DNA of 64,000 nt, from contig CM097884.1 in the NCBI GenBank assembly GCA_044892505.1, positions 135,284,001 to 135,348,000 of the forward strand, given 5' to 3'. Both the position numbers and the translations under genes were made by a program. A model generated the notes under the pieces. The model had not been told where the DNA came from. It did not search any database and saw only the letters and a program-made list of their open reading frames with translations. The stretch comes from Schmidtea nova (Eukaryota). This document shows, piece by piece, positions 21,141-50,624 of the stretch (the first letter of the stretch is position 1; each line of letters opens with the position of its first letter).

Positions 21141-21514
21141 TGTTGGGCTAGCCAGATCGAGCAGCATCTGGAAATAATATACAATCAATAAAATAAATTT
21201 ACAACAGAATAACAACAAAATAAATTACCAACACCAAAGCGTAACAAATAAGCGGCAACATCTAAAAGAAATAACATATTAACCAAAACAGCAAAAATCT
21301 TCAAAACTCACTCATGCGAAGCAGAAAAAATTGGAATATGACAGCGCGTGGGCGGATGTCACCAAAGACCTAAAAACAAAAATAAAATAAAATAAATTGA
21401 TGACTAAGAAAAACTTACCGCATGATTAACCAAACAAATCGGCAAGTTAAGTTAGGCAGCAAAAAGCCGACAACATGAAAAAATGAAGCAAACATACACA
21501 CATACTCGATGCTG

Positions 21515-21547
21515 ATTGGCTAACCAACAACACCGGTTCAGTATAAA
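21515..21547 (+). promoter_or_regulatory. Putative LTR promoter: inverted CCAAT (ATTGG) plus TATAAA
   Basis: Both motifs and their 26-27 nt spacing are conserved in three diverged LTRs (9102/9129, 16517/16543, 21515/21542). Confidence 0.7.
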
Positions 21548-22654
21548 TACTGAAGTCAAATCAGTATTTGACAATGCCATTTTTTACCAAGTGTAACTTG
21601 CAGTTGAGTACTGAGAACATTGTAAAACCAACTTGAAGGAAAATAAAAGGTAATTGTTGTGTGTTAGATTGTTTCTTTAAACCCTCATAATTATGATTGT
21701 TAACCATATTAAAATCAATAAGGTTTTCCGGAGGCCTAACAGCCTGACGGATTCTTGGGGCCTCTCAGCGCAACACAATCTTTCGGTTGTGAGGTGCTGA
21801 TGCGGCGGGACCATAGGTGTTCTAAATATTTAACAAGCGGAAGGGGGAAGGGCACATCGGATATCTCATGCCATCGTAACCTCAGTAGGGGTAGAAGCAA
21901 TTGAAGGACGTATCATCTGTCACGACAACATCGAGTACCTTGGTTTACGTAAAAGACGTGTTGATAGACACAAAGTGTCCAGCGTTCGTGAAGTCAAGTA
22001 GAGTAACGACAACTTTGTGCAGAGGGTAAGTATCATGATAAATTGAGCACTGACGATGATAGAGCTATACAACGCATGAGCCATGTGAGTCAGAGACCGA
22101 CAGTGCTAGGGTCAGAGGTAAACCATGAATCCACAGGATATCCCAACATATATGTACGCCTCTCGAAGGGTACGAAGGATAGACCCACGAAATGTAATGC
22201 AAGTACAATCTATACCCAATTAACCTGAATAAGGGGTCGATCGTGTTCCCCGGATGATGTGATTCTTGATAGTTGAACCTGAGGTATGGAGATAACACCT
22301 GAGGAGTGATTGAGCATGATTGTTGTAAAAAATAAACCAAAATGGTCTCTGAAATGATGATAGTCAAACATAATAAATGGTCAAGTAATCATCGTAGATA
22401 AAAACAGACTGTCATAAACGGCACTGAATTATGCGTGGCCAAATCATATAAGTAAATTGATATAGCGAATACACTCACCCGCAATGACAATAACATACAT
22501 CCTACATAATATCTTGAACGTCGGACCGGTTCAACACTGAACCACCAACTGCAACCTACAGAGTTTCACCCTTGAGTCGAGTAGGTCAACGGTTATAAAT
22601 AATTGCGCGCACCCGACAAATTCATCACAATAACATATTCTTGTCTTCAGCAAT

Positions 22655-23290
22655 ATGATAAAGACCGAAGAATACCAAAGAAGTCTGAGCACCTCTCGAC
22701 AGATGAAAGTGGAAGATTATGTCGTCCGGAAACCGCGACGCATCCGTTCCGTCGTCCGGCCAAGGAGGATCCCTACCATCGATGGAGAAATGGAAGCCCC
22801 ACGCAGAATTAGCGAAACTGCGCGTCGACATCTACGTCGGTGGACAAGACACCATATGAGTGCAGCCGCAGGTATTCCGGCTTGCACCTTCACGATACAA
22901 TTACGATGGGAAGGAGACCCCGATTGGATGTCCACCATGGACCCTGCCGAACCAAGGACCGATAGGTGGTTCTTCCAATTCCTCGACGGACAGAGACGAC
23001 CCCGCTGGGTGTTGAGCAATGAAATGATGACGGGAAGGGCTCTATTTCAATTAGGGTACATGCTGCTAGACAGGCCTCGGTGTCGCTACACTGAGGAAGT
23101 CTTCGCTTATTCCAACGCACCAGGAAGTGTTTCCGTGGAACAACACCCCGAGCCCAAGGAGCTTCGCCTCTGGGAGGTGTTTATCTACAAAGATAAGCTG
23201 AGTTGGGACCCAGCCCCAGAAATGTATTGGGAGAATGGAATTCGCCGCGACGAGCATCCTGCCGATCAGGAATTGAGGACATTCAGTTGA
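22655..23290 (+). CDS. LTR-encoded ORF1, unknown function (211 aa)
   Basis: Intact in both LTRs; protein-level homologs in both solo LTRs; preceded by acceptor-like TTCTTGTCTTCAG. Confidence 0.75.
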   Translation: MIKTEEYQRSLSTSRQMKVEDYVVRKPRRIRSVVRPRRIPTIDGEMEAPRRISETARRHLRRWTRHHMSAAAGIPACTFTIQLRWEGDPDWMSTMDPAEPRTDRWFFQFLDGQRRPRWVLSNEMMTGRALFQLGYMLLDRPRCRYTEEVFAYSNAPGSVSVEQHPEPKELRLWEVFIYKDKLSWDPAPEMYWENGIRRDEHPADQELRTFS

Positions 23291-23439
23291 TTGATGCAGC
23301 CGAGAAAGAATGATTGTCTTAGATATAGAAATATATGTATTGGAGTGCGACGGTCTTGTTTTGTTTTGAGTGCATGAGAACAACCTAAGGATAAGGTAGA
23401 GTTGTGTAATGACGATAGGATGACCGAAAGATCAGACAC

Positions 23440-24039
23440 ATGACATATACTGCCATTAATGATATATTTACAGACATGACGGAAACCAAGGGCAGAGATT
23501 TCAAGCAAGAGGCGCGAGAACACAAGGCGCGCTCACGAGTCCTGGAGAGTCGATTAAGGCAGCTGAATGAGGAGCATCAGCGGGTTAAAACGACATGGTT
23601 TAGCCCAGAGCGGGTTAAGTCCATCCTGCAGGCTAGATACAGGGCGGAACGAGTAGCTGAGGAACATGCCAGAGAGATTGCAGCCCTGAAGCTGGAGTTG
23701 GCGAATTATTTGAAGGTGTCGACTCGAGACTTCATCACCGAACAATTGCGCCCCGTGATCCGAGCGAGCACCTTTAATCGATGGATAGATACGATAGCGG
23801 TAACTACGAGTACCCAAACAGAAACCGATACCATCGCAACCACGACGATCGAATCAACAACGAAAACTCCAGCCGGTTCAAAACGAACGAAGAGGAGGAA
23901 TCGCTTAGGAGCGAAAAAGCGCAGGGAAAGACGCGCATATGCAGATCGCGTAGGAATAGAGGTAGACTTGCTCAGTGGTCTATCTGAGCAAGAACTACTA
24001 AATGTAATTCGACCCTCTGTATTGGTGAACTATAAATAA
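23440..24039 (+). CDS. LTR-encoded ORF2 (199 aa; coiled coil, TQT motif, Arg-rich basic patch); start may be Met13 at 23476
   Basis: Intact in both LTRs; homologs at 18283 and 10572; AATAAA at the stop. Confidence 0.8.
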   Translation: MTYTAINDIFTDMTETKGRDFKQEAREHKARSRVLESRLRQLNEEHQRVKTTWFSPERVKSILQARYRAERVAEEHAREIAALKLELANYLKVSTRDFITEQLRPVIRASTFNRWIDTIAVTTSTQTETDTIATTTIESTTKTPAGSKRTKRRNRLGAKKRRERRAYADRVGIEVDLLSGLSEQELLNVIRPSVLVNYK

Positions 24040-24429
24040 ATGTATATAAATGAATGACTTGATTTACCTTGTTTGTTTGATGCATGTATAAGAAGTAAAA
24101 GTAACAAAAACCCTGGTTCATTTAAATTGCAGATATCTAAAAAGTAAATTACCCTAGAGCAAAGTAAGGAGCATAAGTGGGACCGAAAGAAAGCCACAGA
24201 CACCTTCTATCGGTAGTGGTGGACCCGTGAATAAACAAGGGAATAGTAGCCGAAAGGTTGCTCACCTGCCTTGTCATTTCACAACGTTGACACAGCACCA
24301 ACATGATGAGTAGTTAGGGATACATCATGGGTGTCAGCGGGGGAATGTTTTTATGTTGGCGAGATCACCCTAACATATAAAATCATAATGATCTCAGTTG
24401 TCAATCTAACCAACACACCAGCATAAATT

Positions 24430-24448
24430 TGGGGGCTCAGTCGGGATT
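24430..24448 (+). other. Primer-binding site, tRNA-Pro-like
   Basis: TGGGGGCTCAGTCGGGATT begins after a 6-nt spacer from the LTR end; canonical Pro PBS is TGGGGGCTCGTCCGGGAT. Confidence 0.75.
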
Positions 24449-24981
24449 AAATCGATCTTTGTGGGAAAAAGTGAATTCGATATCTGCGGACAGTTTAGAG
24501 CGCCTGAACCGGGATGAATTGAATTTAGCGAGGAAAGGTAAAGTAAATAATAACAGAGGGTTTAAGTGTCCTGAAGCAAGAATGAATCGGGTTGAAAAAT
24601 AATAAATAAAAGTATGAGTGTAAAATAATGAGATTGATGAACGTGATGAAAGTATGCATGAGAATGAAAGTATGAATGATAATGGAATGGAAGTATGAGG
24701 ACGAATGAAGTATGATGAATAGTATGTGGAATAACAGTATGAAAAGTGATGAAAAGTATGCATGACGTAAGGTAAAAGTATGCTGAAAAGTGTGCATGAA
24801 AATGGTATGAGTGTGAGCAACTAACAATGATCATGTCGGGGCGACATTCAAGAACACGGGGGGATATACACGCAGTGACGCAAAACAGAACAACAGAAAG
24901 CGAACAGTAGGACTACCATAGAATAAAAATAAGAAATAATAAATAAAAATCGACAGAAATTAATGGTAATTCATTCAGGGG

Positions 24982-25440
24982 ATGGAGAACAAAATAAAAG
25001 AAATGCAAACGTTTTTCGAGACAAATAACGAGACAATGGAGATAATAATGAGAAAGTTAAGACGACTCGAGGTAGGAGGATATCACAAACCGACAAACAA
25101 CACAGAAAGAGCTGAAACAATGATGAGCATAAGCGAGAATAAGATAACAGTGGATACAGCAACACGATATCAGTGGTATAGAGAGCGCTTAAACAACCCT
25201 GAAATGAATATCGAGTGCCACAGGCTAGAACAACAGATTGCAACAAAACACGATGAGTGGAAAAGAACGACAACCGAATATACGAGACAGTATCTGACGT
25301 GTTACATCTGTGAAATAAACAAAATACAGATAATGTTGTTGCCGTGTGGGCATTTTCGATTCTGTAATGACTGTAAAATAAATGAACGATGTCCTATGTG
25401 CAACCTTCCCGTATCCGAGAAAATAACAGTGTACTTGTAA
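24982..25440 (+). CDS. IAP-type C3HC4 RING finger protein without BIR (152 aa)
   Basis: C-terminal CYICEINKIQIMLLPCGHFRFCNDC...CPMC...KITVYL; AATAAA just after the stop. Confidence 0.8.
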   Translation: MENKIKEMQTFFETNNETMEIIMRKLRRLEVGGYHKPTNNTERAETMMSISENKITVDTATRYQWYRERLNNPEMNIECHRLEQQIATKHDEWKRTTTEYTRQYLTCYICEINKIQIMLLPCGHFRFCNDCKINERCPMCNLPVSEKITVYL

Positions 25441-26140
25441 TAGAAATAAAGTTTTGAACAAGTGCAGTTGTTATTGAAATTATGAGGGTTTAATAGTGAT
25501 TTGGTAAAAATGACCTAAGTAATTATGAGCTACTTACGAGTAGTCCGTTAAGCACCCATTTGGGGGAACCAACTGATCAACTCACCCGAGATGTGTAGAA
25601 AGGGATCCAATCGCGGATATTGGAAAGCTCTTGTGATGTGACTGATCACCACATCGTGCATCAGTGGACCAATGCGATCTTTTTATATATTTTGCTTGGG
25701 GTGAAAGGTAGGGACAACTCAATGAGGTTAGGCGCGCGCAGAAAAACTATAAAAAAAATAGGATGATAAACTGATCAGTAAAGAGAGAGAGAAAGCAATG
25801 AAATGAGTAAGATGAATAGCGAAACGGAGTATATGATGAAAGGCACGTAATCAGCTCGCATAAGGTAAAATCAAGTAGAGAAGTCGATGAATAAATAACA
25901 GAATAAAGGGGTGTAGTAGATGAGCCGAGTAAAGGGAAAACTCGAGGTTAAATGAATTCCTTGAAAGAAAGGAAATGATAAGAGGGGTCCTAGAGAGAAA
26001 GGATTTGCCCATAGTTCTTGAAAAATAGAACTTAACGAAACACGACAATAGATTCTCCGAAGAAGCATAAGTGACCACTGGGAGGAACATCCCGAAGCAA
26101 CACATGCAACCACTGAGAGATGATATTTCGAGTTTTCGTT

Positions 26141-26739
26141 CGTGAGCATAGGTCTCATAGTGAGCATAGGTCTCGTCATAAAACATAACATCCTAGTGAG
26201 CGTAGGTCTCGTCATAAAACACAACACCATAGTGAGCATAGTTCTCGTAGTGAGCAGAGTTCTCATTAATAAACACAAGACCAGCGAACCTAGTCCTCAT
26301 CAGTGAGCGTAGTTCTCATCAATAAACATAGCCATCGTAGTGAGCGTAGTTCTCATCAGGAAACATAATTCCTGTAGTCACCATCAGTGAGCGTAGTTCT
26401 CATCGGGGAACATAGTCCCCAGGGCAAAGAGTTTCCATCAGTAAGCAAAACCCTCATAACAACCATGTTTTGCCAGTGAGCATAGTTCTCGTTAGTGAGC
26501 ATAGTTCTCGTCATTGAGCATAGTTCTCGTTAGTGAGCATAGTTCTCGTCAGTGAGCATAGTTCTCGTCAGTGAGCATAGTTCTCGTCAGTGAGCATAGT
26601 TCTCGTCAGTGAGCATAGTTCTCGTCAGTGAGCATAGTTCTCGTCATTGAGCATAGTTCTCGTCATTGAGCATAGTTCTCGTCATTGAGCATAGTTCTCG
26701 TCAGTGAGCATAGTTCTCAGCCGTGAGCATAGTTCTCGT
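26141..26739 (+). repeat. 19-bp tandem array (AGTGAGCATAGTTCTCGTC)
   Basis: About 14 near-perfect copies at 26475-26739, plus degenerate interspersed copies from ~26141. Confidence 0.9.
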
Positions 26740-27062
26740 TCGAAATAATATTGAGTAAAAGCCCACGAGAAAGACGACGAAGTGAGGCAGATGAGGACTA
26801 AATAAAGTATAAAACTATCCGGATAGTGAAGATCAATAAGCGGTAATGGAGATGAATAAATGATAATGAGGATAAATGATGAATAGTGAAAATGAATAGC
26901 GAATAATGAGGAATAAGGGTTGAAAGAAACCGAGGTAATAATGTGAGAGTTGAAGGTGCGCACCTGGGAATTGATAAATGCGAGTAAAGCTGATTATGTG
27001 GCCTAACGACGTCAAAGTATGCATACATAGGAGTAATAAAGTAAAGTGAGTAAGTGAAGGGT

Positions 27063-28405: not shown

Positions 28406-29551
28406 ATGAGTGATCACAGAGAGGATCTAAGAGAAAAATTCAAGGGCGAACCATTTAATGGAGACGCCAGTAGATTGGACACGTTTCTGAAGGAATTTGG
28501 CATATTCGTGGATATATGCGGATGGAGTGCAGAAACGTTAGCGAATCGAATCCCGCTATACTTGAAAGATAGCGCATTGGATCTGTATATTGAAAAGAGA
28601 TCTGGAAGTAATCCACCCAGAACGTGGGAAGCGATCAAGGAGTTCTTCCAACAGACGTTTGGGATAAACAAAGTGCTGAATGAAGCATTCGATGAGTTCT
28701 CAGCAAGAAAACAAAGGAGAAATGAGTCAAATGCGGTGTACGCAAGCGAATTAAGAAAGTTGGCGAAACTGGCATTCAACAGAGGAAGCCCAGTAGACGA
28801 AGAATTGATGACAGCGTTATTCGTACGAGGTCTCAGGAGACCTGACATCAGAGCACAAGTGGGATGCAAGGGATGTAAAACAGTAGATGAAGCGTTGGAA
28901 GCAGCCAACCTATTCGAATTGCATATGGCAATGAATGACATGAGAATTACGGCGGTAATGGGAAAAACGACAGAAGATGAAGAACAAGGAAAAAGAAACA
29001 TGAATCAGAGTATTCCCCATTCACAGAGATTGTTCAAAGAACCGCCAGCGAGGAAGAATAACGGATATATCACGGTGAACACGAATGGAGGAAATAGTTA
29101 CAATGACAGGCAGAATAGGCAATGTCAGACGTGTGGGAAAAACGGACATTGGCAACAAGAGTGTTTCCAGAATGTAGCCTGTAAACTGTGTGGACAAAAA
29201 GGTCACTCAGAAAATCGATGTTATGGGAAAACGTGTTACACATGTGGAAAAACCGGACACATGTCAAGAGACTGTAATCAACAGAGAAGTTGGTCAAACA
29301 GTGGAAATAGACCGAATTACGGGAATCGACCAAGCTATGGGAATCAAGGTCAACAACGGAACAACCCAAACAGCAGTGCAAACGAAGCTAGTATGAAAGA
29401 AGCTAAGTTGAGACAGGAGGTATCCAGATTACACGAGATAATCGAAAGCATGGCAAAGGGAAGCCAACAAGCTGCTCAACCAAAGATAAACATGATCCAG
29501 TTAATAGAAGCTGAGGCCGAAAGAGAAAACAGAGAGTCAACAGAAACATAA
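28406..29551 (+). CDS. gag: Gag (retrotransposon capsid domain plus three CCHC zinc knuckles)
   Basis: FNGD...LKDSAL..Y...W..IK..F..TFG capsid pattern; CQTCGKNGHWQQEC, CKLCGQKGHSENRC, CYTCGKTGHMSRDC. Confidence 0.93.
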   Translation: MSDHREDLREKFKGEPFNGDASRLDTFLKEFGIFVDICGWSAETLANRIPLYLKDSALDLYIEKRSGSNPPRTWEAIKEFFQQTFGINKVLNEAFDEFSARKQRRNESNAVYASELRKLAKLAFNRGSPVDEELMTALFVRGLRRPDIRAQVGCKGCKTVDEALEAANLFELHMAMNDMRITAVMGKTTEDEEQGKRNMNQSIPHSQRLFKEPPARKNNGYITVNTNGGNSYNDRQNRQCQTCGKNGHWQQECFQNVACKLCGQKGHSENRCYGKTCYTCGKTGHMSRDCNQQRSWSNSGNRPNYGNRPSYGNQGQQRNNPNSSANEASMKEAKLRQEVSRLHEIIESMAKGSQQAAQPKINMIQLIEAEAERENRESTET

Positions 29552-29639
29552 TCAAGAATGGGCTAGAGTACGACGAGAAGAAGAACAAGTCAGGCAACAA
29601 CGATTACAACAGTTAAAAAAGGGAAATCCAAGGATCAAC

Positions 29640-41600: not shown

Positions 41601-43313
41601 ATATGCGCAATAAAGCAGAGAGGAGAACCAAAAGCACCTCAGGTAACTGCATGTCAATTATATAAAGCAACAGAAGCGCTGAAAATACAGAAATGGATTG
41701 AGAAAAGAAGCGAAGAGACAACGAGAAGAACAGAAGTGGAATTGGAGAAAGGGAAGAATCAATCTGAAGCAGAAGAAGGAATCGGAAACCGAACGGAGAA
41801 AGAAAGAATAACCAAAAATTCAGCGGGAAAATTAACATTCCAACCGGAATTGATATGTGTAGCATTAATATTAATCCTCATTAAGAGAATCATGGAGGAC
41901 ATAGATATTAGCGTAATGACGTTAGTAAATATCCAAGACCAACGAACAACGAACGGAAGATGTTGGGGACGAAACAATGAGGTAATTGGAATCAGCGAAA
42001 CAAGAGAAAGTCGAGAGACAGAGACAAATGAGGAAATCGAGATAACCGAAATGGAAACAGAGAAAACATGTGAACTATGCCTCATGGAAAAAGCAGCAAA
42101 CGGAAACAGACCAGGAACAAGCGAGTGTAAAGTGTTCCAAGCAAAGGAGATAATTGAGTTCCCAAAAAGAAAGAAACAAGATCAAGAAACGATTGCGAAT
42201 GAAGTAGTAACAGTGGAGATAAAAAACATTGGTCGGAGAACAATTGGGATGTGTTGGAGAAAATACATCGGAGTACCGACCAACAACATAATACCGCAAT
42301 GCAGAACGAGAGAACGAGGAATCCCGTTTCAACTAAATGGATTCGAAGTCGGACAAACCTACGAAATTTGCGTAATTCGAAGAATAAGAGAAATAATACT
42401 AAGAAGCCTGGAGTGCAAACTGTACAAGACGCCAGAGCAAATTAACGGAACAAGAACGATCGAAATGGGAGGAAGTCGACAGAGGAAAAGAAAGTCAAGA
42501 AGAACCACGACAACAAACAGTCAAGGAGTTCAACAGGCAACAACGGAAAGAACGACAATAGAAAACGAACCGGAATCAACAACGCTGATAATATGGAAGA
42601 TCCATAAAAAGGTCCTAGAAATCTGTTGGACACTAATGCCGAACAGTATGGGAAAGTCCCCACGAAACTGTCAAAAGACATCAAATGATAAAGGAGAAAT
42701 AATCGAGGTAGAAATGAGGAAGTTGAAAACAAACGCAGAGTACGAAGTGTGTGCAATCGAAGAAGTAGATGCACAAGGAAATCCACAAGAAAGGTGCGAA
42801 ACCTATTACACGCCAAGGAACACGACGATAAAGAGGAGAATCAAAAAGTTAGAATTCCGAGAATTGAGTCAGAAGAGAGAACAAAACGAGAAGGAAGAAA
42901 CAATACCAAATCAACAAGAAAGATGGGAACCAGAGAAAGTGATTGAAGAAGTTAGACGGAGACAACAACAATATGAACAATGGGAAGCAGAATGGAAAGG
43001 TCAATATGGCGTGATGATAAACCAAAGTGAGACTCCAAGAATGAGCATTGGAAAAACAGTAATGGGATTAATCAGCATGGGAGTATTCATAGCGTGTATA
43101 CCGCTGATAACGATCATGATAGTATGTTGGAGATATGGCATGAGAAATAAGACCATAGCAGTAAAATGGCCGGACGTAAAGGTCACGAACTACAACATAA
43201 AACTACCAAAAGAAGTACGAGAAGAGCTGAAAAGACGATCGAAACACGAAGAGATGTGGGTACAGATCGAAGACGAGGAACTGTACGAAGGAAAACCAGT
43301 GATAGTCGTATAG
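29640..43313 (+). CDS. pol: 4,557-aa polyprotein: accessory domains, glycoprotein, PR, RT, RNase H, IN, ankyrins, FN3-like membrane domain
   Basis: Uninterrupted 13.7-kb ORF (frame open from 29508); DTGA 35760, YIDD 36975, TDAS RNase H, HHCC plus DDE integrase, GPY motif. Confidence 0.96.
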   Translation: MMRAMMEEKQQDESDELEVKEKRNEEQKQEEVSQEVETTEQNQKVEEVEKETETEKETGKETNQEEGVRIKQRGMLVIMPNDHVFRFKYDVKEEVGRLFNKVNEMIPGVTKLPREAFLQTEDLPEVKLKMTDIWEDMGVTETKINVMIIREVEPEKIPPPVKHQTRISRIFKGKIRRRRLEEIEELEKRMGKAEITGNENELIQEVSKNEARPTAHIGMLRHPRQELSDEEDDSEVSSLAGDMLKEPENEDKKMEVVETIEMMSVKEEEIQKLMDNALEVIHNEEFIDGKRYRKFIRAVWQMKYKEWLQEREVRVIQEFIEKLLKEPLNEYVIQIWINECSPRIWIRNPMTDGIYRWVEDRLGSSYKDKFIYSGNGLVRKGTHMIDTGIWPGEITTLSICNTKKEENLQGIVKEANTCYEMRIKPQLVEAKERILAENLNTMIEQIIQQIKKHRKELTKNEYENLKQCIENIRDTSQTRHSNFKTDKLIAKMGKEMFKRGEVSDLKITVRLPNEETRQIEVIPDSKVGEIVEVINETILQREREDEFEDDIAIKYKEHLLNERDERRAYKIGIWDNFQTIHVIRMDDVPRATPRDEERKKKRQEDVMRKLRQIVEIYRNWQMKPEWETILGELDLNRRRLTPVEKQWDNKEKRWKVKRGVYEEDPEGEDRYETNTKRICMVTRRILPTDLDGPETAVIWAELEKQKTSELIELLRGNTRGKRQTKKGLAQFIISNGEDITNLRKVAKAIAEYKRVNEWCPEQLDEVIKKWRNKEFTEETPQKIHLRIMYPNQRKEEFWVMLTEKVKSVKEKLMYELPFHLQHQGRSLDNNLEIWLTPVQLDLMNTLTVAQIVGQPLKFKEEKKAKGSMSTPSPMKSTTTPGTSSGQARTTPIKTRERTPPEAYDVDEILTDSDEAIEELTKLTQKPTANIFDRIIEMPITSPAEIDDQGVEQEVVIEMVNDSEDEQEQPQFTQEMERWLEQRANEGRDVTEETGRAARFVETGTGMEKRPRGRPKIDLATTIPKTREERRQEQWEICLKKLDKIAEIRGKEENQVCQGEEWLTKTIMDVLAIIDPDLKNLWRINEPSTKAKMLHNAIAPIMPELIKAKTKSNHLDWQGTTMLIKGLLNGAETDSKYLVAISYTIYNLLTLSRGSPKSSPMGRHIKNTAMIIEKEIEPYILRKGGWEKFIKENQTKEGSNVMRKKLEGVLREMENRQTMQGNGRSTLNLNSIIMMMLVWLLSTEGVTTFEVFDCDQMKLGEKYSLRGTEQCKDATPVELKEIKKEQWYHVYQEAELIKTMVNECKVQKTRFAFYCGRGHYSAIVMPGTEREPIVLQGEDCEALFKHGEVTTRDKIKIKGKPGMMLQQTYYVAGRITGGEGYCQGETYPIFGVPATNLVVMDTYIVELKSYEAFFEPTTGEMKTLSMCKIDRSMCQTGMSTLVYKPKVNECQLQLLQGAKFDEIQGKTFQEEDDDDKARAKHLKEALENKRQLKSEQREKRIEMRTTPTVLITTNQDVGMRFIKGKATLKCSTTVYETNYPGIYVSKQEVPNAKPKIDTMDIKLHLYVNNKMDFLFHRGQASLQKVYYDLINNDCILNREILKTKLAVAITNPDSAMPLLPLREGHFGRVVGEAMYVYICEKTHASLAATTQLKPGQCTNELEIDYKGKVRYVQPVTRIINPPGFEPNPFNCSNAYGPLYQKPDGKWVMFPGRTEVLAPREFELMQLSKDRQFSDVDVSNNGIYSPKDLEAARQNILFPARREALLSNIVTITGGTNYREGPNYELLLSPAHFKKATENMMKAMWGRFLIFGQMMAGILGVILIIQIVRVIITQMLACFDIYKREKKVNWKMVVGFLPFLAKTMVLHGHSKDIHRIKRLLKILAKMRGTNEDVGRKFKKIMQDEQARRQLKKERKGLWERVKGYRTQDDSSNDDDDDDDQGGQANINQIPQYNEKSAVENWRYSAPPQSMYNEPIYKAKPNMMQMMPMTSIYPIIPEDCKVKRGGSVNSLEDTHTIAVMSTNMGPILTTTVEINGREIEAMIDTGANISAIDINHIPEKNQGEIEKTNVHVIACSQETVEVAGRWFVKIKHRGAEINTYIAVIPSLSVPCIIGTDLMPDLFKEIVIDLGAMKLKDRTGKICRMKVKVASAGQIVVPARHEMMCYVKIDSTIKGDMIFEPSKKFEAKKELQMARELVTINQEGEIPINLVNFDEEDKIIYENENLGKLTPMSEIEIPDKNEKSKDELPWKIDSVLLDERQKEQLQKLLMEYKDIFAASDLDLGTCDVTLHTIPLTDETPIVLRPYKLAEAQKAVAEEEVQKMLDAEVIEPSCSPWQFPVVMVKKKDGTQRFCIDYRRLNAVTKRDTYPLPDINEMLLTLQGAAYFTSLDLKSGYWQIKMKDEDKEKTAFTIGRDLYQFKKMPFGLTNAPASFQRCMNFVTHGIKQCMVYIDDLLIYSATFEDHLQDIRNVFVKLRQWKLKLKPSKCDWAKDKVTFLGHIVSAKGKEPDPRNIEKVKECPPPKTVTQIQEFLGLCGYYRKFIKDYAGISKPMQELVRQDVSFVWGAEQQAAFETLRDKLITAPILVHPDFKKPFLLATDASGYAAGAVLGQFDEEGKERVIGYYSRTFRKHEKNYSVTEREAYAIILAIKHFKYLLWGHEIYITTDHQPLVWLGQHKESSSRLMRWAMQLQEYSPFIKFKAGKANANADCMSRFTFPELVNLNALKICALIAEDLDFSELRKDQLEDEELGLISKYLKEREMEIFGKNQTLREHMQKYQHRYVMEKGWLLIQDGERRLMCLPANRRKEIMTQYHDGKLGGHMSAKKTIGRLRQKYFWPTMEDDVKEWIKNCLTCATRKNVGTKWKTPLKPMPIPAEPMATIAMDVVGPLPESLKGNQYILVVTDYLTKFPEAFAIPDQKAKTVARILVEEICCRYGTPKKILTDQGTNFMSEILDEVTNYFRIAKLRTSPYHPQTNGQTERFNGTLIRMLSNYVSKHQTDWDEYINLCLMAYRMSIHAATKLSPFQLMYGRDCNLPIDLEYQPPLSQYMEVDDYVTKFKERMQEIWKTAELNIKFYQESYKDLHDQKKNVKAHDLKVGDWVIIETPEIIPGTVKKLQRPGKGPYEITTVNENNVRVRLVNNPLVRPIYVNACRCRKIPKTATLSPEKRVMTRSQTARISMLRVQQKPQTSLEDNRREVIDIKELAKRTREIIPEWKWWFDFNILTEVRKNVMDYAKDRTAHPITRTLLEEIPQTLNLQDKDGNTALHNAIKHSGNEKVKEIVEMILEGGGEIDKVNWEGITPLMMMTIHGRNDEIIKLFGNTRSNWMTKDKEGRTFLNHAIDRANHRILKYITENATWEIDELTRGSIMKQAIGVKNSKTWRILLKWKRPEGDSWIMDCNEVFIKGENALLKHLLEVTYDPKTLAVLIARDTLRVSENPREYKLEDRKKELFGLIKKWCDKQWNPDMSFEHFYDIQKQHKEISKRYKELVEALKYGQFFRQAVYQDQRMKQMQTRIRSKAVLFNAKADYQERLDAIVAKAQEKLSEFKENKKSLEILGAITEKVHRYAQGDSNESDMETIKNQMPVAFLLSKNGRLPIHWALRRKKENEVLEITKAMVKCEADMNTVDGNGDTIMIIAARKKTKLKVLNELYEAGAKIEGKNGKNNSIIDIAIQWNNFEMIKFIKSIKRQEDIEYLANNVKNFSLTVMIHDIEKTRALITWVNPITKEPAFKINDHMEQNQNWCIRSALLRHKKPEIVEEFLKRRDLKFTNNPKEPERTGRWKNLFRKYVNEWTNAKGAIKQSRLEDREPSKEMEIREFESSTLAVQTYERLIEEINVEDDISKGPGGGYRDFDDKSNNEENNEDNDNKRTEDNEKERQEEPKPTRNDKKGEAEERENSGTKDEHANYGKRTGSLLLRPEMLCIAILITIIGQGEAKKQYVTLEIIRGKEVYERICWKENLKKNDTLKCILSDLKRDVIQIKGLEKEKSYIICAIKQRGEPKAPQVTACQLYKATEALKIQKWIEKRSEETTRRTEVELEKGKNQSEAEEGIGNRTEKERITKNSAGKLTFQPELICVALILILIKRIMEDIDISVMTLVNIQDQRTTNGRCWGRNNEVIGISETRESRETETNEEIEITEMETEKTCELCLMEKAANGNRPGTSECKVFQAKEIIEFPKRKKQDQETIANEVVTVEIKNIGRRTIGMCWRKYIGVPTNNIIPQCRTRERGIPFQLNGFEVGQTYEICVIRRIREIILRSLECKLYKTPEQINGTRTIEMGGSRQRKRKSRRTTTTNSQGVQQATTERTTIENEPESTTLIIWKIHKKVLEICWTLMPNSMGKSPRNCQKTSNDKGEIIEVEMRKLKTNAEYEVCAIEEVDAQGNPQERCETYYTPRNTTIKRRIKKLEFRELSQKREQNEKEETIPNQQERWEPEKVIEEVRRRQQQYEQWEAEWKGQYGVMINQSETPRMSIGKTVMGLISMGVFIACIPLITIMIVCWRYGMRNKTIAVKWPDVKVTNYNIKLPKEVREELKRRSKHEEMWVQIEDEELYEGKPVIVV
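32738..33215 (+). other. Bcl-2-like domain within the polyprotein
   Basis: IEKEIEPYILRKGGWEKFI resembles BH2 (Bcl-xL LNDHLEPWIQENGGWDTFV); weaker BH3-like LKKLDKIAE and BH1-like ELI...LDWQGT in the expected order. Confidence 0.55.
33321..35250 (+). other. Chuvirus-like fusion glycoprotein domain
   Basis: Signal-like SIIMMMLVWLLSTEG; FDC...YSL...EQC, ECKV...R...YCG..H, YVNNK, NDCILNR, FGRVVGEAMYVYIC Cys pattern; C-terminal TM GILGVILIIQIVRVII. Confidence 0.8.
35700..36030 (+). other. Aspartic protease domain
   Basis: INGREIEAMIDTGANISAI ... CIIGTDLM. Confidence 0.9.
36550..37790 (+). other. Ty3/Gypsy-type reverse transcriptase plus RNase H
   Basis: SPW..PVVMVKKKDG..RFCIDYRRLN, LDLKSGYWQI, MPFGLTNAPASFQR, YIDD; LATDAS...ERE...TDHQPL...NADCMSR. 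Confidence 0.95.
38040..39080 (+). other. Integrase
   Basis: YHDGKLGGH...CLTC; AMDVVG, TDQGTNF, TERFNGTL; C-terminal GPY module. Confidence 0.95.
39390..40690 (+). other. Two ankyrin-repeat clusters (~39390-39700 and ~40400-40690)
   Basis: NLQDKDGNTALHNAI, NWEGITPLM, KDKEGRTFLNHAI; KNGRLPIHWAL, ADMNTVDGNGDTIMIIA, GAKIEGKNGKNNSIIDIA. Confidence 0.8.
41382..43313 (+). other. C-terminal membrane module: hydrophobic leader(s), four FN3-like Cys-containing repeats, TM, short tail
   Basis: Four repeats of [xCW ... I/L..L....Y.(I/V)C ... C..(Y/F)]; TM GLISMGVFIACIPLITIMIVCW at ~43060-43135. Confidence 0.55.
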
Positions 43314-43435
43314 AGGGTGGAATATGAGTGTAAATAGTAGTGTAAAAACCAATGCATAACCGTATACGTATGGGTATAAATATTATAAAACATAAAAACA
43401 GAAAAAGAGAATGATGTATATAATCTAGAAAAACG

Positions 43436-43786
43436 ATGAATCAAGGAACCACAGAGATGTCGATGATGACAAGATGGAAAGTACAATGTGACCTGCTAGC
43501 CAGAACAGTAAATGAATTACAGAGCCAGTTGACGGCAAAAACGCAATTATTAACCGAGAGTTATAACTGTAATTTCGAAGCAATGAACAAAATCGAGATT
43601 CAACAACTACAGATAAACGAATTACAGAACGAGAACCGAACATTGAATGAAGTGAACAACTGGCAAGCAGAAGAAATTGACAGATTAACGAGACATGAAG
43701 AGGAAGAGATACCAGATAGTTGGACGAGCTGGATTGTAAATGAGATAGACGTGTATCCAGAGCCAGATTCAACTGAGGATGTATAG
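43436..43786 (+). CDS. Small coiled-coil protein with acidic tail (116 aa)
   Basis: Co-oriented ORF with the element's A-rich codon style; heptad-like Q/L/E-rich segment. Confidence 0.6.
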   Translation: MNQGTTEMSMMTRWKVQCDLLARTVNELQSQLTAKTQLLTESYNCNFEAMNKIEIQQLQINELQNENRTLNEVNNWQAEEIDRLTRHEEEEIPDSWTSWIVNEIDVYPEPDSTEDV

Positions 43787-43876
43787 TGAATAAGCGGAAA
43801 ATTGTGTAAATACGTGTAAATAAAGAACCAGAAAAAATCAAAAATATGGGGCAATTGATGTAAATATTGTTGTAGA

Positions 43877-45289
43877 ATGAGAGCAGAAAGCGAAGCGGAT
43901 TACCAAACGATCGAGATTCTAAGAAGAGAAAATCGACAGTGGGGAGTAAATGTGACGTGTGTAAAGTGTAAAAATCTACTGTTAAAACCGAGGCAAACGG
44001 AATGTGGATGCAGGATGTGCACCAAATGTATATTGCAAATAATCAGTGAAAGTGAGACAAGAAAGTGTCCAGAGTGTGATGATAAACTACTGATCAACGA
44101 GACGAAACCAGACAAAGCAATACAAAAGGAGATCTGGAAGATAAAAACAGAGTGTATAAACCAACCATGTGAATGGAAAGGACCAATAATTGAGTTAAGA
44201 CAACATCTGGAGAAATGCGAAAACAAGAAAGCGATATGTGAAAAGTGTCAACAGACGATAACCATCAAGCAGTCGAAAAATCACAAAGATGAGTGCAAAG
44301 CAGAGATAATAGAGTGTCAATACTGCGAACAAAGAGAGACAAGAGAGATAATCGAAACAGAACATCTCAACGTAGCAGAAGAGAAAGTGTGTGGAAAATT
44401 CAGAGGAATTTGTCCAAGTAATTGTGGAACCGGAGAAGAAGTGATGTTGAGAGAACATTGGGAACAATGCGAATCAAGACCAAGAAAGTGCGTATGGAGT
44501 AAACAAGGATGTCTAGTAAAGAAAACGAGCAAAGAAATGAAAGAACATTTAGAAACAGAGACGGTACAACACGCAGAGATGCTAACAGAAAATTTAAACG
44601 GAATGGAACAAACCATACAGAAGCTGGGAAAAGAAATCGAATCTCAGAGGATAATGACGGAGTTATTACTAGAAACAAGAGAGCAATTCGAGGTCACCAG
44701 AGAGAAAATGATGGAGAAAATCAAAGTCATAGAGACGCTAGTAAGAGAAGTAAATGTACGACACCAAATGTGGGTGCGAGATGCAGAGGATATCGAGAAT
44801 TTACCTGTCGCACCATACGTATGGAAAATCAAGAACTTCAACGAAAAGTTCGCAGCAGCAAAAGCAGGAAGTCAAGTGTCGGTAACAAGTCCACCATTCT
44901 ATCTGTGGAAAAACGGATACAAAGTCCGGATGAGAATTTACCCAAATGGAGATGGATCAGGAAAGGAAACGCATGTGTCATTATTCTTTGCGTTGGGTAA
45001 AGGTGGTTACGACGACATATTAGAATGGCCACTAGAAACAAAGGCTATAATGAGAGTGAGAAACTCGAAAGAAACAATAGCGAGAGTATTCAAAATTGAT
45101 GGTAAGCACGAAGCTTACAAAAGACCAACCACAGAATGTTCATTAGCGACTGGAGAACCAAAATTCATACCACACCAAACAATGTGGGAGATGTTGTACG
45201 ACGACAACTTATATGTGGAGTTGGAGATCGAAAAGAAAACAAGTACAACAGTGATGAACACAAAGTCAACGAAAGGATGGTTAGAGTAG
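43877..45289 (+). CDS. Intronless TRAF-family protein (RING, TRAF zinc fingers, coiled coil, MATH; 470 aa)
   Basis: CVKC...PRQTECGCRMCTKC...CPEC; C...CEWKG...HLEKC; YVWKIKNF...SPPFY...GYK..MRIYPNGDGSGKETHVSLFF...YDDILEWP. Confidence 0.93.
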   Translation: MRAESEADYQTIEILRRENRQWGVNVTCVKCKNLLLKPRQTECGCRMCTKCILQIISESETRKCPECDDKLLINETKPDKAIQKEIWKIKTECINQPCEWKGPIIELRQHLEKCENKKAICEKCQQTITIKQSKNHKDECKAEIIECQYCEQRETREIIETEHLNVAEEKVCGKFRGICPSNCGTGEEVMLREHWEQCESRPRKCVWSKQGCLVKKTSKEMKEHLETETVQHAEMLTENLNGMEQTIQKLGKEIESQRIMTELLLETREQFEVTREKMMEKIKVIETLVREVNVRHQMWVRDAEDIENLPVAPYVWKIKNFNEKFAAAKAGSQVSVTSPPFYLWKNGYKVRMRIYPNGDGSGKETHVSLFFALGKGGYDDILEWPLETKAIMRVRNSKETIARVFKIDGKHEAYKRPTTECSLATGEPKFIPHQTMWEMLYDDNLYVELEIEKKTSTTVMNTKSTKGWLE

Positions 45290-45381
45290 TCAGAAGGAAC
45301 GACCCTGTAAATAAAGTGTAAAAAAAATCGACAACAACAATAAACGTATAGTATAACAAGTGTAAATTTGTAAATTACAGA

Positions 45382-46542
45382 ATGGAAAACGCAAATGAAC
45401 ATGTAATCGAAGATGAAACGAGAAACGAGATGGCGAACGAACGAGAAGCAATAGAAAGAGAAATCGAAAGTAGATGTAAAACGGAAGTGGAACAAAGAAC
45501 CAGAGAATTACACGAAGTGATGACAAACAATTTCTACGAGAAACTAAAATACGAGAGACGAATGGAGTTATATCAACTAGAACTCGAGGAAGTGAATAAA
45601 GAGATAGTACAACTGACAGCACAAAGAGAGAAGCTAAAAGGAACGAATTCACGAAGTCGACAGAAGATAGAAGAGACCTATCAGTTGATGAGGAAACAAG
45701 CAGAACATTATAAAAATATGATGAAAACGCGAAGAGAGGAGAGGGAGAAACAAGAGGAAAAGATGGAGGTAAAAATACTAGCAATCAAGGCTCAAGCGAG
45801 ACATTGGAAAATGGAGTCGAAACGAGTGTATAAAGAAGCCAAAGAGATAATCAGAAAGACAGCATACAGCGAAGATTGGAAATTGTATCAAGAGATAGAC
45901 GAATTGAAAGAGGAATTAGAACAGAGAAAGCGACAAGAACAGAGAAACAAAGAATGGAGTCGAAAACGGCAACGATTTATTCGAGAGCAAGCAAAGGAAC
46001 TAAAGAAAACGCAATGGCAAATGCAGATGATAAATGGAGAAATGCGAGGTATTAGACAGAAAGAGGAAGCGGAAAGACAAAAGTTGATCAGGGAAAAAGA
46101 AAGTCTGGAAAGAGATGTAAATGGTTATCAAGGGGTGGTGACCCAAAAGAAAATGGAGTTGAAAGCAGTGAAAGAAAGACATGCGGAATCAAACCGAGCT
46201 TACGAGGAAAACATAACGAACTTGACGAAAGAAAATGAAGAGCTGAAACAACAAATAATAACCCTGAAAGCAGAGAAAGAAACCATAGAAGTAGAAACCG
46301 AACCTACAGAAGTAGAAGCCCTGAAGAGAAAAGTGGAAGAGATGGAAAGACAAATTGAAACTCTGAGCGAACAATCAGATTACATGGAGTATCTGTTAGA
46401 TGAAGAGATACAAATCTCTCGAACGTATCAAGATGAAATTGCAATGTGGAGAAGCAGAGTGGTGTGGTTACCATTTATACCACCACCACCAATGGAGCTC
46501 CAAGATGAAGGGTTTCATGAACCAGAGGAGACGGATGTGTAA
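45382..46542 (+). CDS. Long charged coiled-coil protein (386 aa) with PPPP near the C-terminus
   Basis: E/K/R/Q-rich continuous heptads; co-oriented and intact. Confidence 0.7.
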   Translation: MENANEHVIEDETRNEMANEREAIEREIESRCKTEVEQRTRELHEVMTNNFYEKLKYERRMELYQLELEEVNKEIVQLTAQREKLKGTNSRSRQKIEETYQLMRKQAEHYKNMMKTRREEREKQEEKMEVKILAIKAQARHWKMESKRVYKEAKEIIRKTAYSEDWKLYQEIDELKEELEQRKRQEQRNKEWSRKRQRFIREQAKELKKTQWQMQMINGEMRGIRQKEEAERQKLIREKESLERDVNGYQGVVTQKKMELKAVKERHAESNRAYEENITNLTKENEELKQQIITLKAEKETIEVETEPTEVEALKRKVEEMERQIETLSEQSDYMEYLLDEEIQISRTYQDEIAMWRSRVVWLPFIPPPPMELQDEGFHEPEETDV

Positions 46543-46615
46543 AAAGAGGCGAAAAATCCGTGTGTAAAAATGTACAAATCGATGTAACAGGTATTAATCA
46601 GTAGAATAATCAGAA

Positions 46616-47140
46616 ATGAACTGGCTCAAAATCCTACCAATCCTAACGATTATGTTAACTACAACAACAATGAACTGTTCAACAACCGAAATCCAAAGAA
46701 CCCTGTCAAATGAGATATCCCAAGAGATTGAAAAACAACTAAACGAAGTCAGAGAAGACTTGAAACAATTAATACGACAAATGCGAATCAGTCATGATCA
46801 TCGCAAACCCTTGCAAACCCTATTCAATCAAATCGAGAAGATCCGAGAAATCCATAAAACCTTTCAAGATCACCTAAAGCCAATCAAAGGTCAAACCCAA
46901 ATCGAATCCGAAATCCGAAACAGATGGATCATCGTTGGAATAGTCACAATGACAATACTGACAATCATCTTGATCATAGGGATCACGTATACCCTGTACC
47001 GAATCAGAAGCCTCAAACAACAACAAATGATAATGTGTAGATGTGCCAAAAGAGAAGCGAAAACCCAACAGAGAATGAGAAGTCATCTACGACAAATTCA
47101 AGCCAGATACGAAATGCAGTCAACCAGTGAAAGGACCTGA
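46616..47140 (+). CDS. Small predicted type-I membrane protein (174 aa)
   Basis: Signal-like MNWLKILPILTIML; helical ectodomain; TM WIIVGIVTMTILTIILIIGITYTLY; basic tail with CRC. Confidence 0.7.
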   Translation: MNWLKILPILTIMLTTTTMNCSTTEIQRTLSNEISQEIEKQLNEVREDLKQLIRQMRISHDHRKPLQTLFNQIEKIREIHKTFQDHLKPIKGQTQIESEIRNRWIIVGIVTMTILTIILIIGITYTLYRIRSLKQQQMIMCRCAKREAKTQQRMRSHLRQIQARYEMQSTSERT

Positions 47141-47310
47141 AAATCGACCCCTATGAGCCAGAAACATTGAACTGTGTAACAATATAAACATGACAATGAC
47201 AACGTGTATGTGTAAAAATGTGTATAAAAGCTACCACCTTATGTGGTTTTGCATGTAAGTTCTGTCACGAACTTTTTATGTATGTTGATGTAGGTATATG
47301 CATGTAATTG

Positions 47311-47341
47311 CGGGACGCAATTTTAAGGGGACCCCGAGTGA
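47311..47341 (+). other. Atypical polypurine-tract region
   Basis: CGGGACGCAATTTTAAGGGGACCCCGAGTGA directly before the 3' LTR; the purine run is short (AAGGGGA). Confidence 0.4.
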
Positions 47342-48855
47342 TGTTGGGCTAGCAAGATCGAGCAGCATCTGGAAATAATATACAATCAATAAAATAAATT
47401 TACAACAGAATAACAACAAAATAAATTACCAACACCAAAGCGTAACAAATAAGCGGCAACATCTAAAAGAAATAACATATTAACCAAAACAGCAAAAATC
47501 TTCAAAACTCACTCATGCGAAGCAGAAAAAATTGGAATATGACAGCGCGTGGGCGGATGTCACCAAAGACCTAAAAACAAAAATAAAATAAAATAAATTG
47601 ATGACTAAGAAAAACTTACCGCATGATTAACCAAACAAATCGGCAAGTTAAGTTAGGCAGCAAAAAGCCGACAACATGAAAAAATGAAGCAAACATACAC
47701 ACATACTCGATGCTGATTGGCTAACCAACAACACCGGTTCAGTATAAATACTGAAGTCAAATCAGTATTTGACAATGCCATTTTTTACCAAGTGTAACTT
47801 GCAGTTGAGTACTGAGAACATTGTAAAACCAACTTGAAGGAAAATAAAAGGTAATTGTTGTGTGTTAGATTGTTTCTTTAAACCCTCATAATTATGATTG
47901 TTAACCATATTAAAATCAATAAGGTTTTCCGGAGGCCTAACAGCCTGACGGATTCTTGGGGCCTCTCAGCGCAACACAATCTTTCGGTTGTGAGGTGCTG
48001 ATGCGGCGGGACCATAGGTGTTCTAAATATTTAACAAGCGGAAGGGGGAAGGGCACATCGGATATCTCATGCCATCGTAACCTCAGTAGGGGTAGAAGCA
48101 ATTGAAGGACGTATCATCTGTCACGACAACATCGAGTACCTTGGTTTACGTAAAAGACGTGTTGATAGACACAAAGTGTCCAGCGTTCGTGAAGTCAAGT
48201 AGAGTAACGACAACTTTGTGCAGAGGGTAAGTATCATGATAAATTGAGCACTGACGATGATAGAGCTATACAACGCATGAGCCATGTGAGTCAGAGACCG
48301 ACAGTGCTAGGGTCAGAGGTAAACCATGAATCCACAGGATATCCCAACATATATGTACGCCTCTCGAAGGGTACGAAGGATAGACCCACGAAATGTAATG
48401 CAAGTACAATCTATACCCAATTAACCTGAATAAGGGGTCGATCGTGTTCCCCGGATGATGTGATTCTTGATAGTTGAACCTGAGGTATGGAGATAACACC
48501 TGAGGAGTGATTGAGCATGATTGTTGTAAAAAATAAACCAAAATGGTCTCTGAAATGATGATAGTCAAACATAATAAATGGTCAAGTAATCATCGTAGAT
48601 AAAAACAGACTGTCATAAACGGCACTGAATTATGCGTGGCCAAATCATATAAGTAAATTGATATAGCGAATACACTCACCCGCAATGACAATAACATACA
48701 TCCTACATAATATCTTGAACGTCGGACCGGTTCAACACTGAACCACCAACTGCAACCTACAGAGTTTCACCCTTGAGTCGAGTAGGTCAACGGTTATAAA
48801 TAATTGCGCGCACCCGACAAATTCATCACAATAACATATTCTTGTCTTCAGCAAT

Positions 48856-49491
48856 ATGATAAAGACCGAAGAATACCAAAGAAGTCTGAGCACCTCTCGA
48901 CAGATGAAAGTGGAAGATTATGTCGTCCGGAAACCGCGACGCATCCGTTCCGTCGTCCGGCCAAGGAGGATCCCTACCATCGATGGAGAAATGGAAGCCC
49001 CACGCAGAATTAGCGAAACTGCGCGTCGACATCTACGTCGGTGGACAAGACACCATATGAGTGCAGCCGCAGGTATTCCGGCTTGCACCTTCACGATACA
49101 ATTACGATGGGAAGGAGACCCCGATTGGATGTCCACCATGGACCCTGCCGAACCAAGGACCGATAGGTGGTTCTTCCAATTCCTCGACGGACAGAGACGA
49201 CCCCGCTGGGTGTTGAGCAATGAAATGATGACGGGAAGGGCTCTATTTCAATTAGGGTACATGCTGCTAGACAGGCCTCGGTGTCGCTACACTGAGGAAG
49301 TCTTCGCTTATTCCAACGCACCAGGAAGTGTTTCCGTGGAACAACACCCCGAGCCCAAGGAGCTTCGCCTCTGGGAGGTGTTTATCTACAAAGATAAGCT
49401 GAGTTGGGACCCAGCCCCAGAAATGTATTGGGAGAATGGAATTCGCCGCGACGAGCATCCTGCCGATCAGGAATTGAGGACATTCAGTTGA
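48856..49491 (+). CDS. LTR ORF1, 3' LTR copy
   Basis: Translation identical to 22655-23290. Confidence 0.75.
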   Translation: MIKTEEYQRSLSTSRQMKVEDYVVRKPRRIRSVVRPRRIPTIDGEMEAPRRISETARRHLRRWTRHHMSAAAGIPACTFTIQLRWEGDPDWMSTMDPAEPRTDRWFFQFLDGQRRPRWVLSNEMMTGRALFQLGYMLLDRPRCRYTEEVFAYSNAPGSVSVEQHPEPKELRLWEVFIYKDKLSWDPAPEMYWENGIRRDEHPADQELRTFS

Positions 49492-49640
49492 TTGATGCAG
49501 CCGAGAAAGAATGATTGTCTTAGATATAGAAATATATGTATTGGAGTGCGACGGTCTTGTTTTGTTTTGAGTGCATGAGAACAACCTAAGGATAAGGTAG
49601 AGTTGTGTAATGACGATAGGATGACCGAAAGATCAGACAC

Positions 49641-50240
49641 ATGACATATACTGCCATTAATGATATATTTACAGACATGACGGAAACCAAGGGCAGAGAT
49701 TTCAAGCAAGAGGCGCGAGAACACAAGGCGCGCTCACGAGTCCTGGAGAGTCGATTAAGGCAGCTGAATGAGGAGCATCAGCGGGTTAAAACGACATGGT
49801 TTAGCCCAGAGCGGGTTAAGTCCATCCTGCAGGCTAGATACAGGGCGGAACGAGTAGCTGAGGAACATGCCAGAGAGATTGCAGCCCTGAAGCTGGAGTT
49901 GGCGAATTATTTGAAGGTGTCGACTCGAGACTTCATCACCGAACAATTGCGCCCCGTGATCCGAGCGAGCACCTTTAATCGATGGATAGATACGATAGCG
50001 GTAACTACGAGTACCCAAACAGAAACCGATACCATCGCAACCACGACGATCGAATCAACAACGAAAACTCCAGCCGGTTCAAAACGAACGAAGAGGAGGA
50101 ATCGCTTAGGAGCGAAAAAGCGCAGGGAAAGACGCGCATATGCAGATCGCGTAGGAATAGAGGTAGACTTGCTCAGTGGTCTATCTGAGCAAGAACTACT
50201 AAATGTAATTCGACCCTCTGTATTGGTGAACTATAAATAA
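49641..50240 (+). CDS. LTR ORF2, 3' LTR copy
   Basis: Translation identical to 23440-24039. Confidence 0.8.
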   Translation: MTYTAINDIFTDMTETKGRDFKQEAREHKARSRVLESRLRQLNEEHQRVKTTWFSPERVKSILQARYRAERVAEEHAREIAALKLELANYLKVSTRDFITEQLRPVIRASTFNRWIDTIAVTTSTQTETDTIATTTIESTTKTPAGSKRTKRRNRLGAKKRRERRAYADRVGIEVDLLSGLSEQELLNVIRPSVLVNYK

Positions 50241-50624
50241 ATGTATATAAATGAATGACTTGATTTACCTTGTTTGTTTGATGCATGTATAAGAAGTAAA
50301 AGTAACAAAAACCCTGGTTCATTTAAATTGCAGATATCTAAAAAGTAAATTACCCTAGAGCAAAGTAAGGAGCATAAGTGGGACCGAAAGAAAGCCACAG
50401 ACACCTTCTATCGGTAGTGGTGGACCCGTGAATAAACAAGGGAATAGTAGCCGAAAGGTTGCTCACCTGCCTTGTCATTTCACAACGTTGACACAGCACC
50501 AACATGATGAGTAGTTAGGGATACATCATGGGTGTCAGCGGGGGAATGTTTTTATGTTGGCGAGATCACCCTAACATATAAAATCATAATGATCTCAGTT
50601 GTCAATCTAACCAACACACCAGCA

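Follow-up and report, generated by a model that had tools for sequence, protein, structure and literature searches.

A giant Burro-type Ty3/Gypsy element of Schmidtea nova with an envelope gene and constrained, putative cell-survival cargo

We analysed a 64,000-nt stretch of the Schmidtea nova genome (GCA_044892505.1, contig CM097884.1, positions 135,284,001 to 135,348,000 of the forward strand; hereafter the window), in which a retroelement of 29,484 bp occupies positions 21141-50624 of the + strand (Table 1). Its long terminal repeats (LTRs) differ by 1 mismatch over 3,283 bp and are flanked by an intact AGAT target-site duplication (TSD), so the insertion is very recent, and the 29.5-kb element is a real, young insertion. 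The paired TG...CA LTRs, the TSD, the tRNA primer site and the order protease (PR), reverse transcriptase (RT), RNase H (RH), integrase (IN) with catalytic motifs place it by sequence in the Metaviridae, where it belongs to the Burro-type Ty3/Gypsy group. The primer-binding site (PBS) is complementary to a tRNA-Pro(TGG) encoded in this genome: along 19 nt it pairs with the 3' end of the gene, CCA added, with Watson-Crick pairs at 18 positions and G:U at one (judged by eye). Genes of this tRNA type form a long 308-bp tandem array at G000:C1 from 459,609,706 (L056), with 1,117 pattern matches genome-wide. Gag plus PR-IN make up 15% of the element and the LTRs 22%, leaving ~62% outside both, close to the two thirds outside gag and pol estimated in the initial annotation of this stretch. 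The internal + strand is 41% A, and Rfam gave no match over 21000-50700.

Table 1. Features of the element and its flanks (window coordinates; aa, amino acids; ORF, open reading frame; UBL, ubiquitin-like; TM, transmembrane)
Feature	Position	Strand	Description or basis
TSD, left	21137..21140	.	AGAT; flank of element
5' LTR	21141..24423	+	3,283 bp; TG...CA ends
LTR ORF-a	22655..23290; second copy 48856-49491	+	211 aa; no known identity
LTR ORF-b	23440..24039; second copy 49641-50240	+	199 aa; coiled-coil-like with basic tail
PBS for tRNA-Pro(TGG)	24430..24448	+	starts six bases past the 5' LTR
RING-only ORF	24982..25440	+	152 aa; IAP-type C-terminal RING, PF13920 E 5e-9
Leader tandem-repeat region, 5'	26156..26796	+	19-bp array at 26474-26739
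Gag	28406..29551	+	capsid and CCHC knuckles (Retrotrans_gag, zf-CCHC); Pfam; dN/dS 0.04
4,601-codon frame	29508..43313	+	remainder of giant polyprotein
Three probable UBL domains	29850-30107, 31143-31397, 31971-32213 (within 29850..32213)	+	helical regions between
Probable Bcl-2-like domain	32733..33227	+	BH2-type motif; motif, position, sister families
Signal/anchor segment and Env	33309..35147	+	fusion glycoprotein (chuvirus/gB type); PF24664; hydropathy
Pol	35718..38837	+	PR, ~125-aa spacer, RT, RNase H, IN (Gypsy order); Pfam
Two ankyrin-repeat clusters	39315..40997	+	PF12796 E 4e-17
Three probable FN3 domains	41370..43313	+	three hydrophobic segments, short tail; profile, model, hydropathy
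Small coiled-coil ORF	43436..43786	+	116 aa; start/stop kept 16/16; dN/dS 0.054
TRAF2/3/5-like ORF	43877..45289	+	470 aa, full length; RING, Zn fingers, coiled coil, MATH
Long coiled-coil ORF	45382..46542	+	386 aa; homologue in BIR-bearing sister family, 28%, E 7e-14
Small membrane-protein ORF	46616..47140	+	174 aa; one strong TM; hydropathy
3' LTR	47342..50624	+	3,283 bp
TSD, right	50625..50628	.	AGAT; flank of element

Comparison of copies indicates that the family encodes one polyprotein of ~4,970 aa, comprising gag, UBL-like repeats, a Bcl-2-like domain, Env, Pol, ankyrins and FN3 domains with TM segments (FN3-TM). In the window copy, gag is out of register with the 4,601-codon frame, the break lying near 29,530. 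This break is absent from all 13 other 5' stretches, 11 of which are open across 1,632 codons counted from the gag start. We read the family polyprotein as single and continuous because none of these 13 copies has the gag-junction break and because env and pol share one frame. A programmed gag/pol frameshift at ~29,530 was considered and rejected, since the break is private to the window copy; it could be an assembly error. Of the intact LTR pair, TSD, PBS, gag and pol that had been annotated initially, the ends, the PBS and the domains hold, whereas the coding sequence of the window copy is disrupted.

The fusion glycoprotein that had been proposed is clearly recognizable (Monjiviricetes_fusion, PF24664, E 8.7e-68); it lies upstream of PR and in frame with pol, with 14 cysteines counted in its ectodomain and a TM segment placed by hydropathy at 35079-35129. 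The catalytic motifs of Pol are all in place. The PR-RT spacer, at the place where Burro elements have a dUTPase-like domain, is conserved (58% identical to that of family B, a sister family described below) and has no Pfam match.

With regard to the free-standing ORFs, the TRAF claimed initially is firmly identified by its sequence, with a MATH domain at E 2e-26 in Pfam, TRAF5, 3, 1 and 2 as best structures, and the complete RING, zinc-finger, coiled-coil and MATH layout. Its MATH domain shares 40% identity with the single host MATH set against it and 32% with the MATH of polyprotein P0048 (see below), which is compatible with, and no proof of, separate captures from the many MATH genes of the host. 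Dense MATH/TRAF-domain matches were also seen at G000:C2 about 405-455 Mb, apparently a large host TRAF expansion. The RING-only ORF has cIAP and XIAP RINGs as its closest structures; the earlier term "IAP-type RING" is therefore apt for the RING but not for an IAP proper, as none of the nine element ORFs scanned with Pfam has a BIR domain. Start and stop codons are kept in 16/16 copies for the four 3' ORFs and in 9/9 for the RING ORF.

Inside the polyprotein, both ankyrin clusters were recovered as annotated. The ubiquitin-like, Bcl-2-like and FN3 pieces of the window family, also labelled in the initial annotation, have no Pfam match, and their labels persist through other evidence. A profile of five UBL-like repeats reached the ubiquitin-like protein 2kan (E 0.02) and the RAD23 UBL (E 0.13), and a sister-family UBL matched Rad60-SLD (E 0.003); we take these as weak leads. 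The Bcl-2-like label is probable, judging by motif, position and sister families: the domain is 32% and 25% identical to the domains at the same position in families B and C, and the family C counterpart matches the Bcl-2 family of Pfam (E 5e-7, slightly under the cut-off). Its AlphaFold2 model, built from a 2-row alignment, is of low confidence (pLDDT 51.5) and aligned with generic helical bundles only (VIA-align). Foldseek returned nothing for this model at E<=0.001 (Mcl-1 and Bcl-2 rows appeared merely at E 2.8-6.5), and the ESM Atlas gave no useful match for the domain. For the FN3 label, several leads agree, each of them weak. A profile of four FN3-like repeats reached the Tie2 FN3 (E 0.025); the model is a beta sandwich of low confidence (pLDDT 57.8) with mixed Ig/FN3 matches (best Z 5.9); and the Atlas neighbours, at 0.77-0.82 and with low recognition, are FNDC-type FN3-TM proteins, a lead only. 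The hydrophobic segments of this region lie at 41370-41420, 41832-41882 and 43077-43127.

Searches with three internal queries returned matches over the full length, 94-96% identical, for the best 25 of 2,156, 19 of 1,507 and 17 of 1,645 candidates; such counts are of best-scoring places among candidates, window included, and candidates are not copy numbers. Colinear full-length copies are spread over three large contigs. Among 40 LTR matches, we found 12 further LTR pairs, eight spaced 26.07-26.27 kb apart (26.20 kb in the window), three shorter and one longer. The element is a member of an abundant family and, with eight of these 12 pairs sharing the spacing, no chimera.

The cargo is common to many copies, and each of its modules is under purifying selection among them. 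Pairwise dN/dS was estimated among natural copies (14 sequences for the 5' part and 17 for the 3' part, window counted), and the bootstrap upper limits were below 0.5 for 15/15 modules. Within the polyprotein, values were 0.04 for gag, 0.06-0.09 for the UBLs, 0.034 for the Bcl-2-like domain, 0.09 and 0.12 for the ankyrins and 0.10-0.26 for FN3; the separate ORFs gave 0.054 (small coiled-coil), 0.105 (TRAF), 0.13 (long coiled-coil), 0.13 (TM) and 0.21 (RING, 10 informative sequences). Env had a dN/dS of 0.022 over 587 codons with no stops, and RT-RH 0.025 (9 sequences). An env constrained as tightly as RT lends only indirect support to an infectious character. Shared variants were mostly more constrained than singletons (0.01 vs 0.16 for the Bcl-2-like domain, 0.08 vs 0.29 for TRAF), as expected if selection acts at replication and drift follows insertion. 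Stops are already present in 7/16 3' stretches and 2/13 5' stretches. Pairwise divergence between copies is ~2-6% with little tree structure, and four-gamete failures become more frequent as distance grows (from 0.24 to 0.57 and from 0.31 to 0.59), which suggests recombination between copies.

The initial annotation had raised possible Burro membership, and this was right in kind. Burro elements of Schmidtea mediterranea were described with UBL, BCL2, MATH/TRAF, BIR/RING and ankyrin domains and with an env placed in frame after gag and ahead of pol, a position that was called a first (PMC6431247). The same authors proposed a provirus view and a meddling with apoptosis that they rated worthy of experimental confirmation. 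The architecture of the window element is accordingly not new, the condition that the initial annotation had itself set for removing novelty. Like the window element, Burro1/GYPSM1, Burro-2, -3 and -4 are ~30 kb long with long LTRs, leader tandem repeats, TRAF/MATH and RING content, and an ORF of ~4,900-5,100 aa holding gag, env, PR-RT-RH-IN and ankyrin parts. Burro elements also have ubiquitin/SUMO-like and BCL2-like domains before env; the probable counterparts in the window element agree in position, motif and sister-family matches, but gave neither a significant direct match nor a confident fold. The group traits that we found are a length of ~30 kb, multi-kb LTRs, high copy number, a giant gag-first ORF (at family level) and ankyrin plus MATH/TRAF cargo. 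Set against the published descriptions, the window element differs in having no BIR, no MATH in ORF1 and a complete TRAF gene downstream of pol, whereas an element of D. tigrina has a MATH ORF upstream. It further has three UBL-like and three FN3-like repeats, the latter with TM segments; FN3 is unmentioned in PMC6431247 ("fibronectin", 0 matches). Lacking BIR, and MATH inside ORF1, the element is by its sequence not Burro1 (GYPSM1). No named Burro sequence was among the protein matches to the window. We did not find the full downstream TRAF, the FN3-TM modules, the between-family cassette differences or dN/dS values in the Burro literature available to us, although Grohme 2018 and Lee 2026 or their supplements may contain them.

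Several further studies bear on this comparison (PMC13465017, PMC13524379, PMC8532177, PMC13563047 and, for context only, PMC11410931). PMC13524379 describes six GAG-ENV-POL elements of S. mediterranea (Smed_errantivirus_1-6) with a gB-type env. These HSV/gB-type errantiviruses of Platyhelminthes share with the window element the gene order and a gB/chuvirus-type env before pol, and the window env is nearest, by eye, to those of Smed_5 and Smed_6. In the available text they are treated as gag, env and pol with no accessory cargo, and Smed_5 is given 1 copy, whereas the window family is abundant; the LTR search of that study left out pairs >14 kb apart. Burro1 is reported to be transcribed and PIWI-silenced (PMC8532177), and TRAF homologues to belong to the planarian TBK1 response (PMC13563047). 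According to PMC13465017, which cites Lee et al. 2026 (Dev Cell), the Burro1 BIR-RING protein (B-IAP) is anti-apoptotic and protects stem cells. An element-borne IAP-type RING and a host cell survival theme are thus common to Burro1 and the window element, but the window RING has no BIR, and in this genome the BIR-RING ORF sits in another family (L035, L055). Because the window family has no BIR, the Burro1 BIR-RING mechanism is not directly transferable to it.

The sister families differ from the window family in cargo. Family B (L036) has an RT 89% identical to that of the window, and its ~5,000-aa frames match P0048, including a MATH insert at a site where the window polyprotein has none. 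Family C (L030) has a compact frame of ~3,070 aa with gag, UBL, Bcl-2, env, pol and one FN3-TM unit. The BIR-RING family (L035, L055) has high copy number and frames of ~399 aa (best 150 of 1,295 candidates scored). Its BIR-RING ORF is followed by a coiled-coil homologue of the window coiled-coil ORF and by secreted or TM ORFs; because the homologous coiled-coil ORF comes next, its IAP occupies the slot that TRAF has in the window. At L035, a MATH-like tail lies directly upstream of the BIR ORF. That the BIR ORF is part of family B was considered but found no support: a probe between two BIR matches, which lie 33.7 kb from each other, contained a host-like exon (L037), which presumably resembles SAP18. 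Upstream of one family B copy, only a degraded RING homologue was seen. We treat the BIR-RING family as separate from family B and as not tied to any pol, a treatment that is unproven.

In a quick tree of 48 rows, the window element and families B and C cluster with P0014, P0016, P0019, P0021, P0022, P0026 and P0028 (SH-aLRT, the approximate likelihood ratio test of SH type, 99). These seven polyproteins share with the window the env family, placed before pol in a single ORF, but their pol is only 42-45% identical and they have no ankyrin, TRAF or Bcl-2 Pfam match. P0028 is an animal-type gag/env/pol polyprotein labelled as a protein of a Flavobacteriaceae metagenome-assembled genome, likely a case of bin contamination.

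On balance, we consider it probable that the element is a young Burro-type insertion whose fusogenic Env and cargo serve its own spread by way of cell survival. This is supported by the anatomy, the continuous gag-to-env frame, the dN/dS values, the equal constraint on env and RT and the published Burro parallel. The membrane, fusogen and cargo steps that follow draw on general knowledge of retroviruses and membrane proteins. Reverse transcription would start from a tRNA-Pro primer. The hydrophobic segment ahead of env could anchor the Gag/UBL/Bcl-2 part and direct Env into the endoplasmic reticulum, and the Env TM segment would bring Pol back to the cytosolic side. The parts would then be cut free by signal peptidase and by the protease of the element, so that Gag, Env and Pol meet at one membrane. 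Env would be a working class III fusogen by which particles pass from one cell of the animal to another. The products of the TRAF, RING, ankyrin, UBL and Bcl-2-like parts may dampen ubiquitin-dependent signalling through TRAF and apoptosis pathways, or divert it, whereby the producing or receiving cell survives, with selection acting in the first place for the spread of the element itself. It is plausible that the cargo of the window family protects the host cell from death or immune signalling.

Several points weigh against this account. The absence of BIR means that the sole tested Burro mechanism is missing from the window family. The Bcl-2 assignment of the window domain was not confirmed: the window and family B sequences scored 18.7 against four host Bcl-2 exons (hhalign), below the shuffled maximum of 25.6, and only the BH2 stretch aligned. 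No simple topology follows from the three hydrophobic segments in the FN3 region. In addition, the copies sampled were the best-scoring matches and hence biased toward young, intact ones; the contrast between shared variants and singletons was absent in RING, FN3b and one low-complexity stretch; and homoplasy adds to the four-gamete failures.

Other explanations must be weighed alongside it. The cargo could be kept mainly for the benefit of the animal (stem-cell survival, regeneration), as reported for the Burro1 BIR-RING protein (PMC13465017, citing Lee et al. 2026). This genome does contain the high-copy BIR-RING family (best 150 of 1,295 candidates), but we think such a mutualism unlikely for an element family without BIR, all the more since the constraint is seen among dispersed copies and the stops in 7/16 3' and 2/13 5' stretches fit selection at replication better than selection per locus. 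The element might instead be a strictly intracellular retrotransposon in which Env and the accessory domains serve particle assembly, trafficking or polyprotein processing on membranes and not cell entry or signalling, the immune-type labels reflecting origin and not a present role. Fused in frame with gag on one side and pol on the other, Env could act as a structural tether; divergence has put several of the cargo domains beyond recognition by Pfam; and the MATH of TRAF shares only 40% identity with the single host MATH set against it. Even so, this strikes us as quite improbable: the whole Env ectodomain is constrained (0.022, 587 codons) beyond the needs of a tether, TRAF retains its full RING-Zn-CC-MATH layout, and the cargo types of four families converge on ubiquitin and apoptosis pathways. 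An assembly chimera, or host fragments hitch-hiking neutrally in one copy, has the private frame break of the window copy in its favour, but is already refuted by the colinear full-length matches on three large contigs, the common spacing of eight of 12 LTR pairs and the purifying selection.

Going beyond the account that we favour, we put forward tentatively that Burro-type elements are a still-infectious, recombining population of giant flatworm endogenous retroviruses with a class III fusogen, whose families swap cargo at equivalent positions (a full TRAF, a BIR-RING IAP or a MATH within the polyprotein), and whose FN3-TM surface protein may act as a decoy or in entry interference. If this were so, the accessory cassette would be modular, like that of large DNA viruses. 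The strong constraint on ORFs whose products other copies could supply suggests steps at which one or a few genomes act alone, and would on this reading reflect bottlenecks, for example when a new stem cell is entered. The kind of element is already published, and the value added here is quantitative and comparative: every accessory module is constrained among copies, with env as tightly held as RT, and sister families of one genome seem to meet the cell-survival problem with different cargo. The BIR-less family can serve naturally as a control for the mutualism reported for Burro1 B-IAP, and opens the questions of whether an invertebrate Gypsy virus still spreads from cell to cell and of the host nodes, in death or immunity, that restrict it.

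Both LTR ORFs have homologues in an older related LTR at 16161-19240 of the window, which is 70-73% identical in parts, has the same ending and is apparently solo. ORF-a, for which we found no Pfam match and no database homologue, shares 42-50% aa identity with its frameshifted counterpart there (pN/pS 0.41-0.57). ORF-b, also without a Pfam match, shares 70% (pN/pS 0.2). A fragment resembling the LTR 3' end lies at 6833-7081 (76% over 199 bp). Elsewhere in the window, open frames at 51633-52496 (- strand, 287 codons) and 12921-13676 (- strand, 251 codons) have no Pfam match, and a 263-bp tandem repeat (53652-54350) and a 28-bp minisatellite of 35 copies (61595-62575) are present. A frame at 59050-59505 matches the TBP family (PF00352, E 2e-7) and is probably a host exon.

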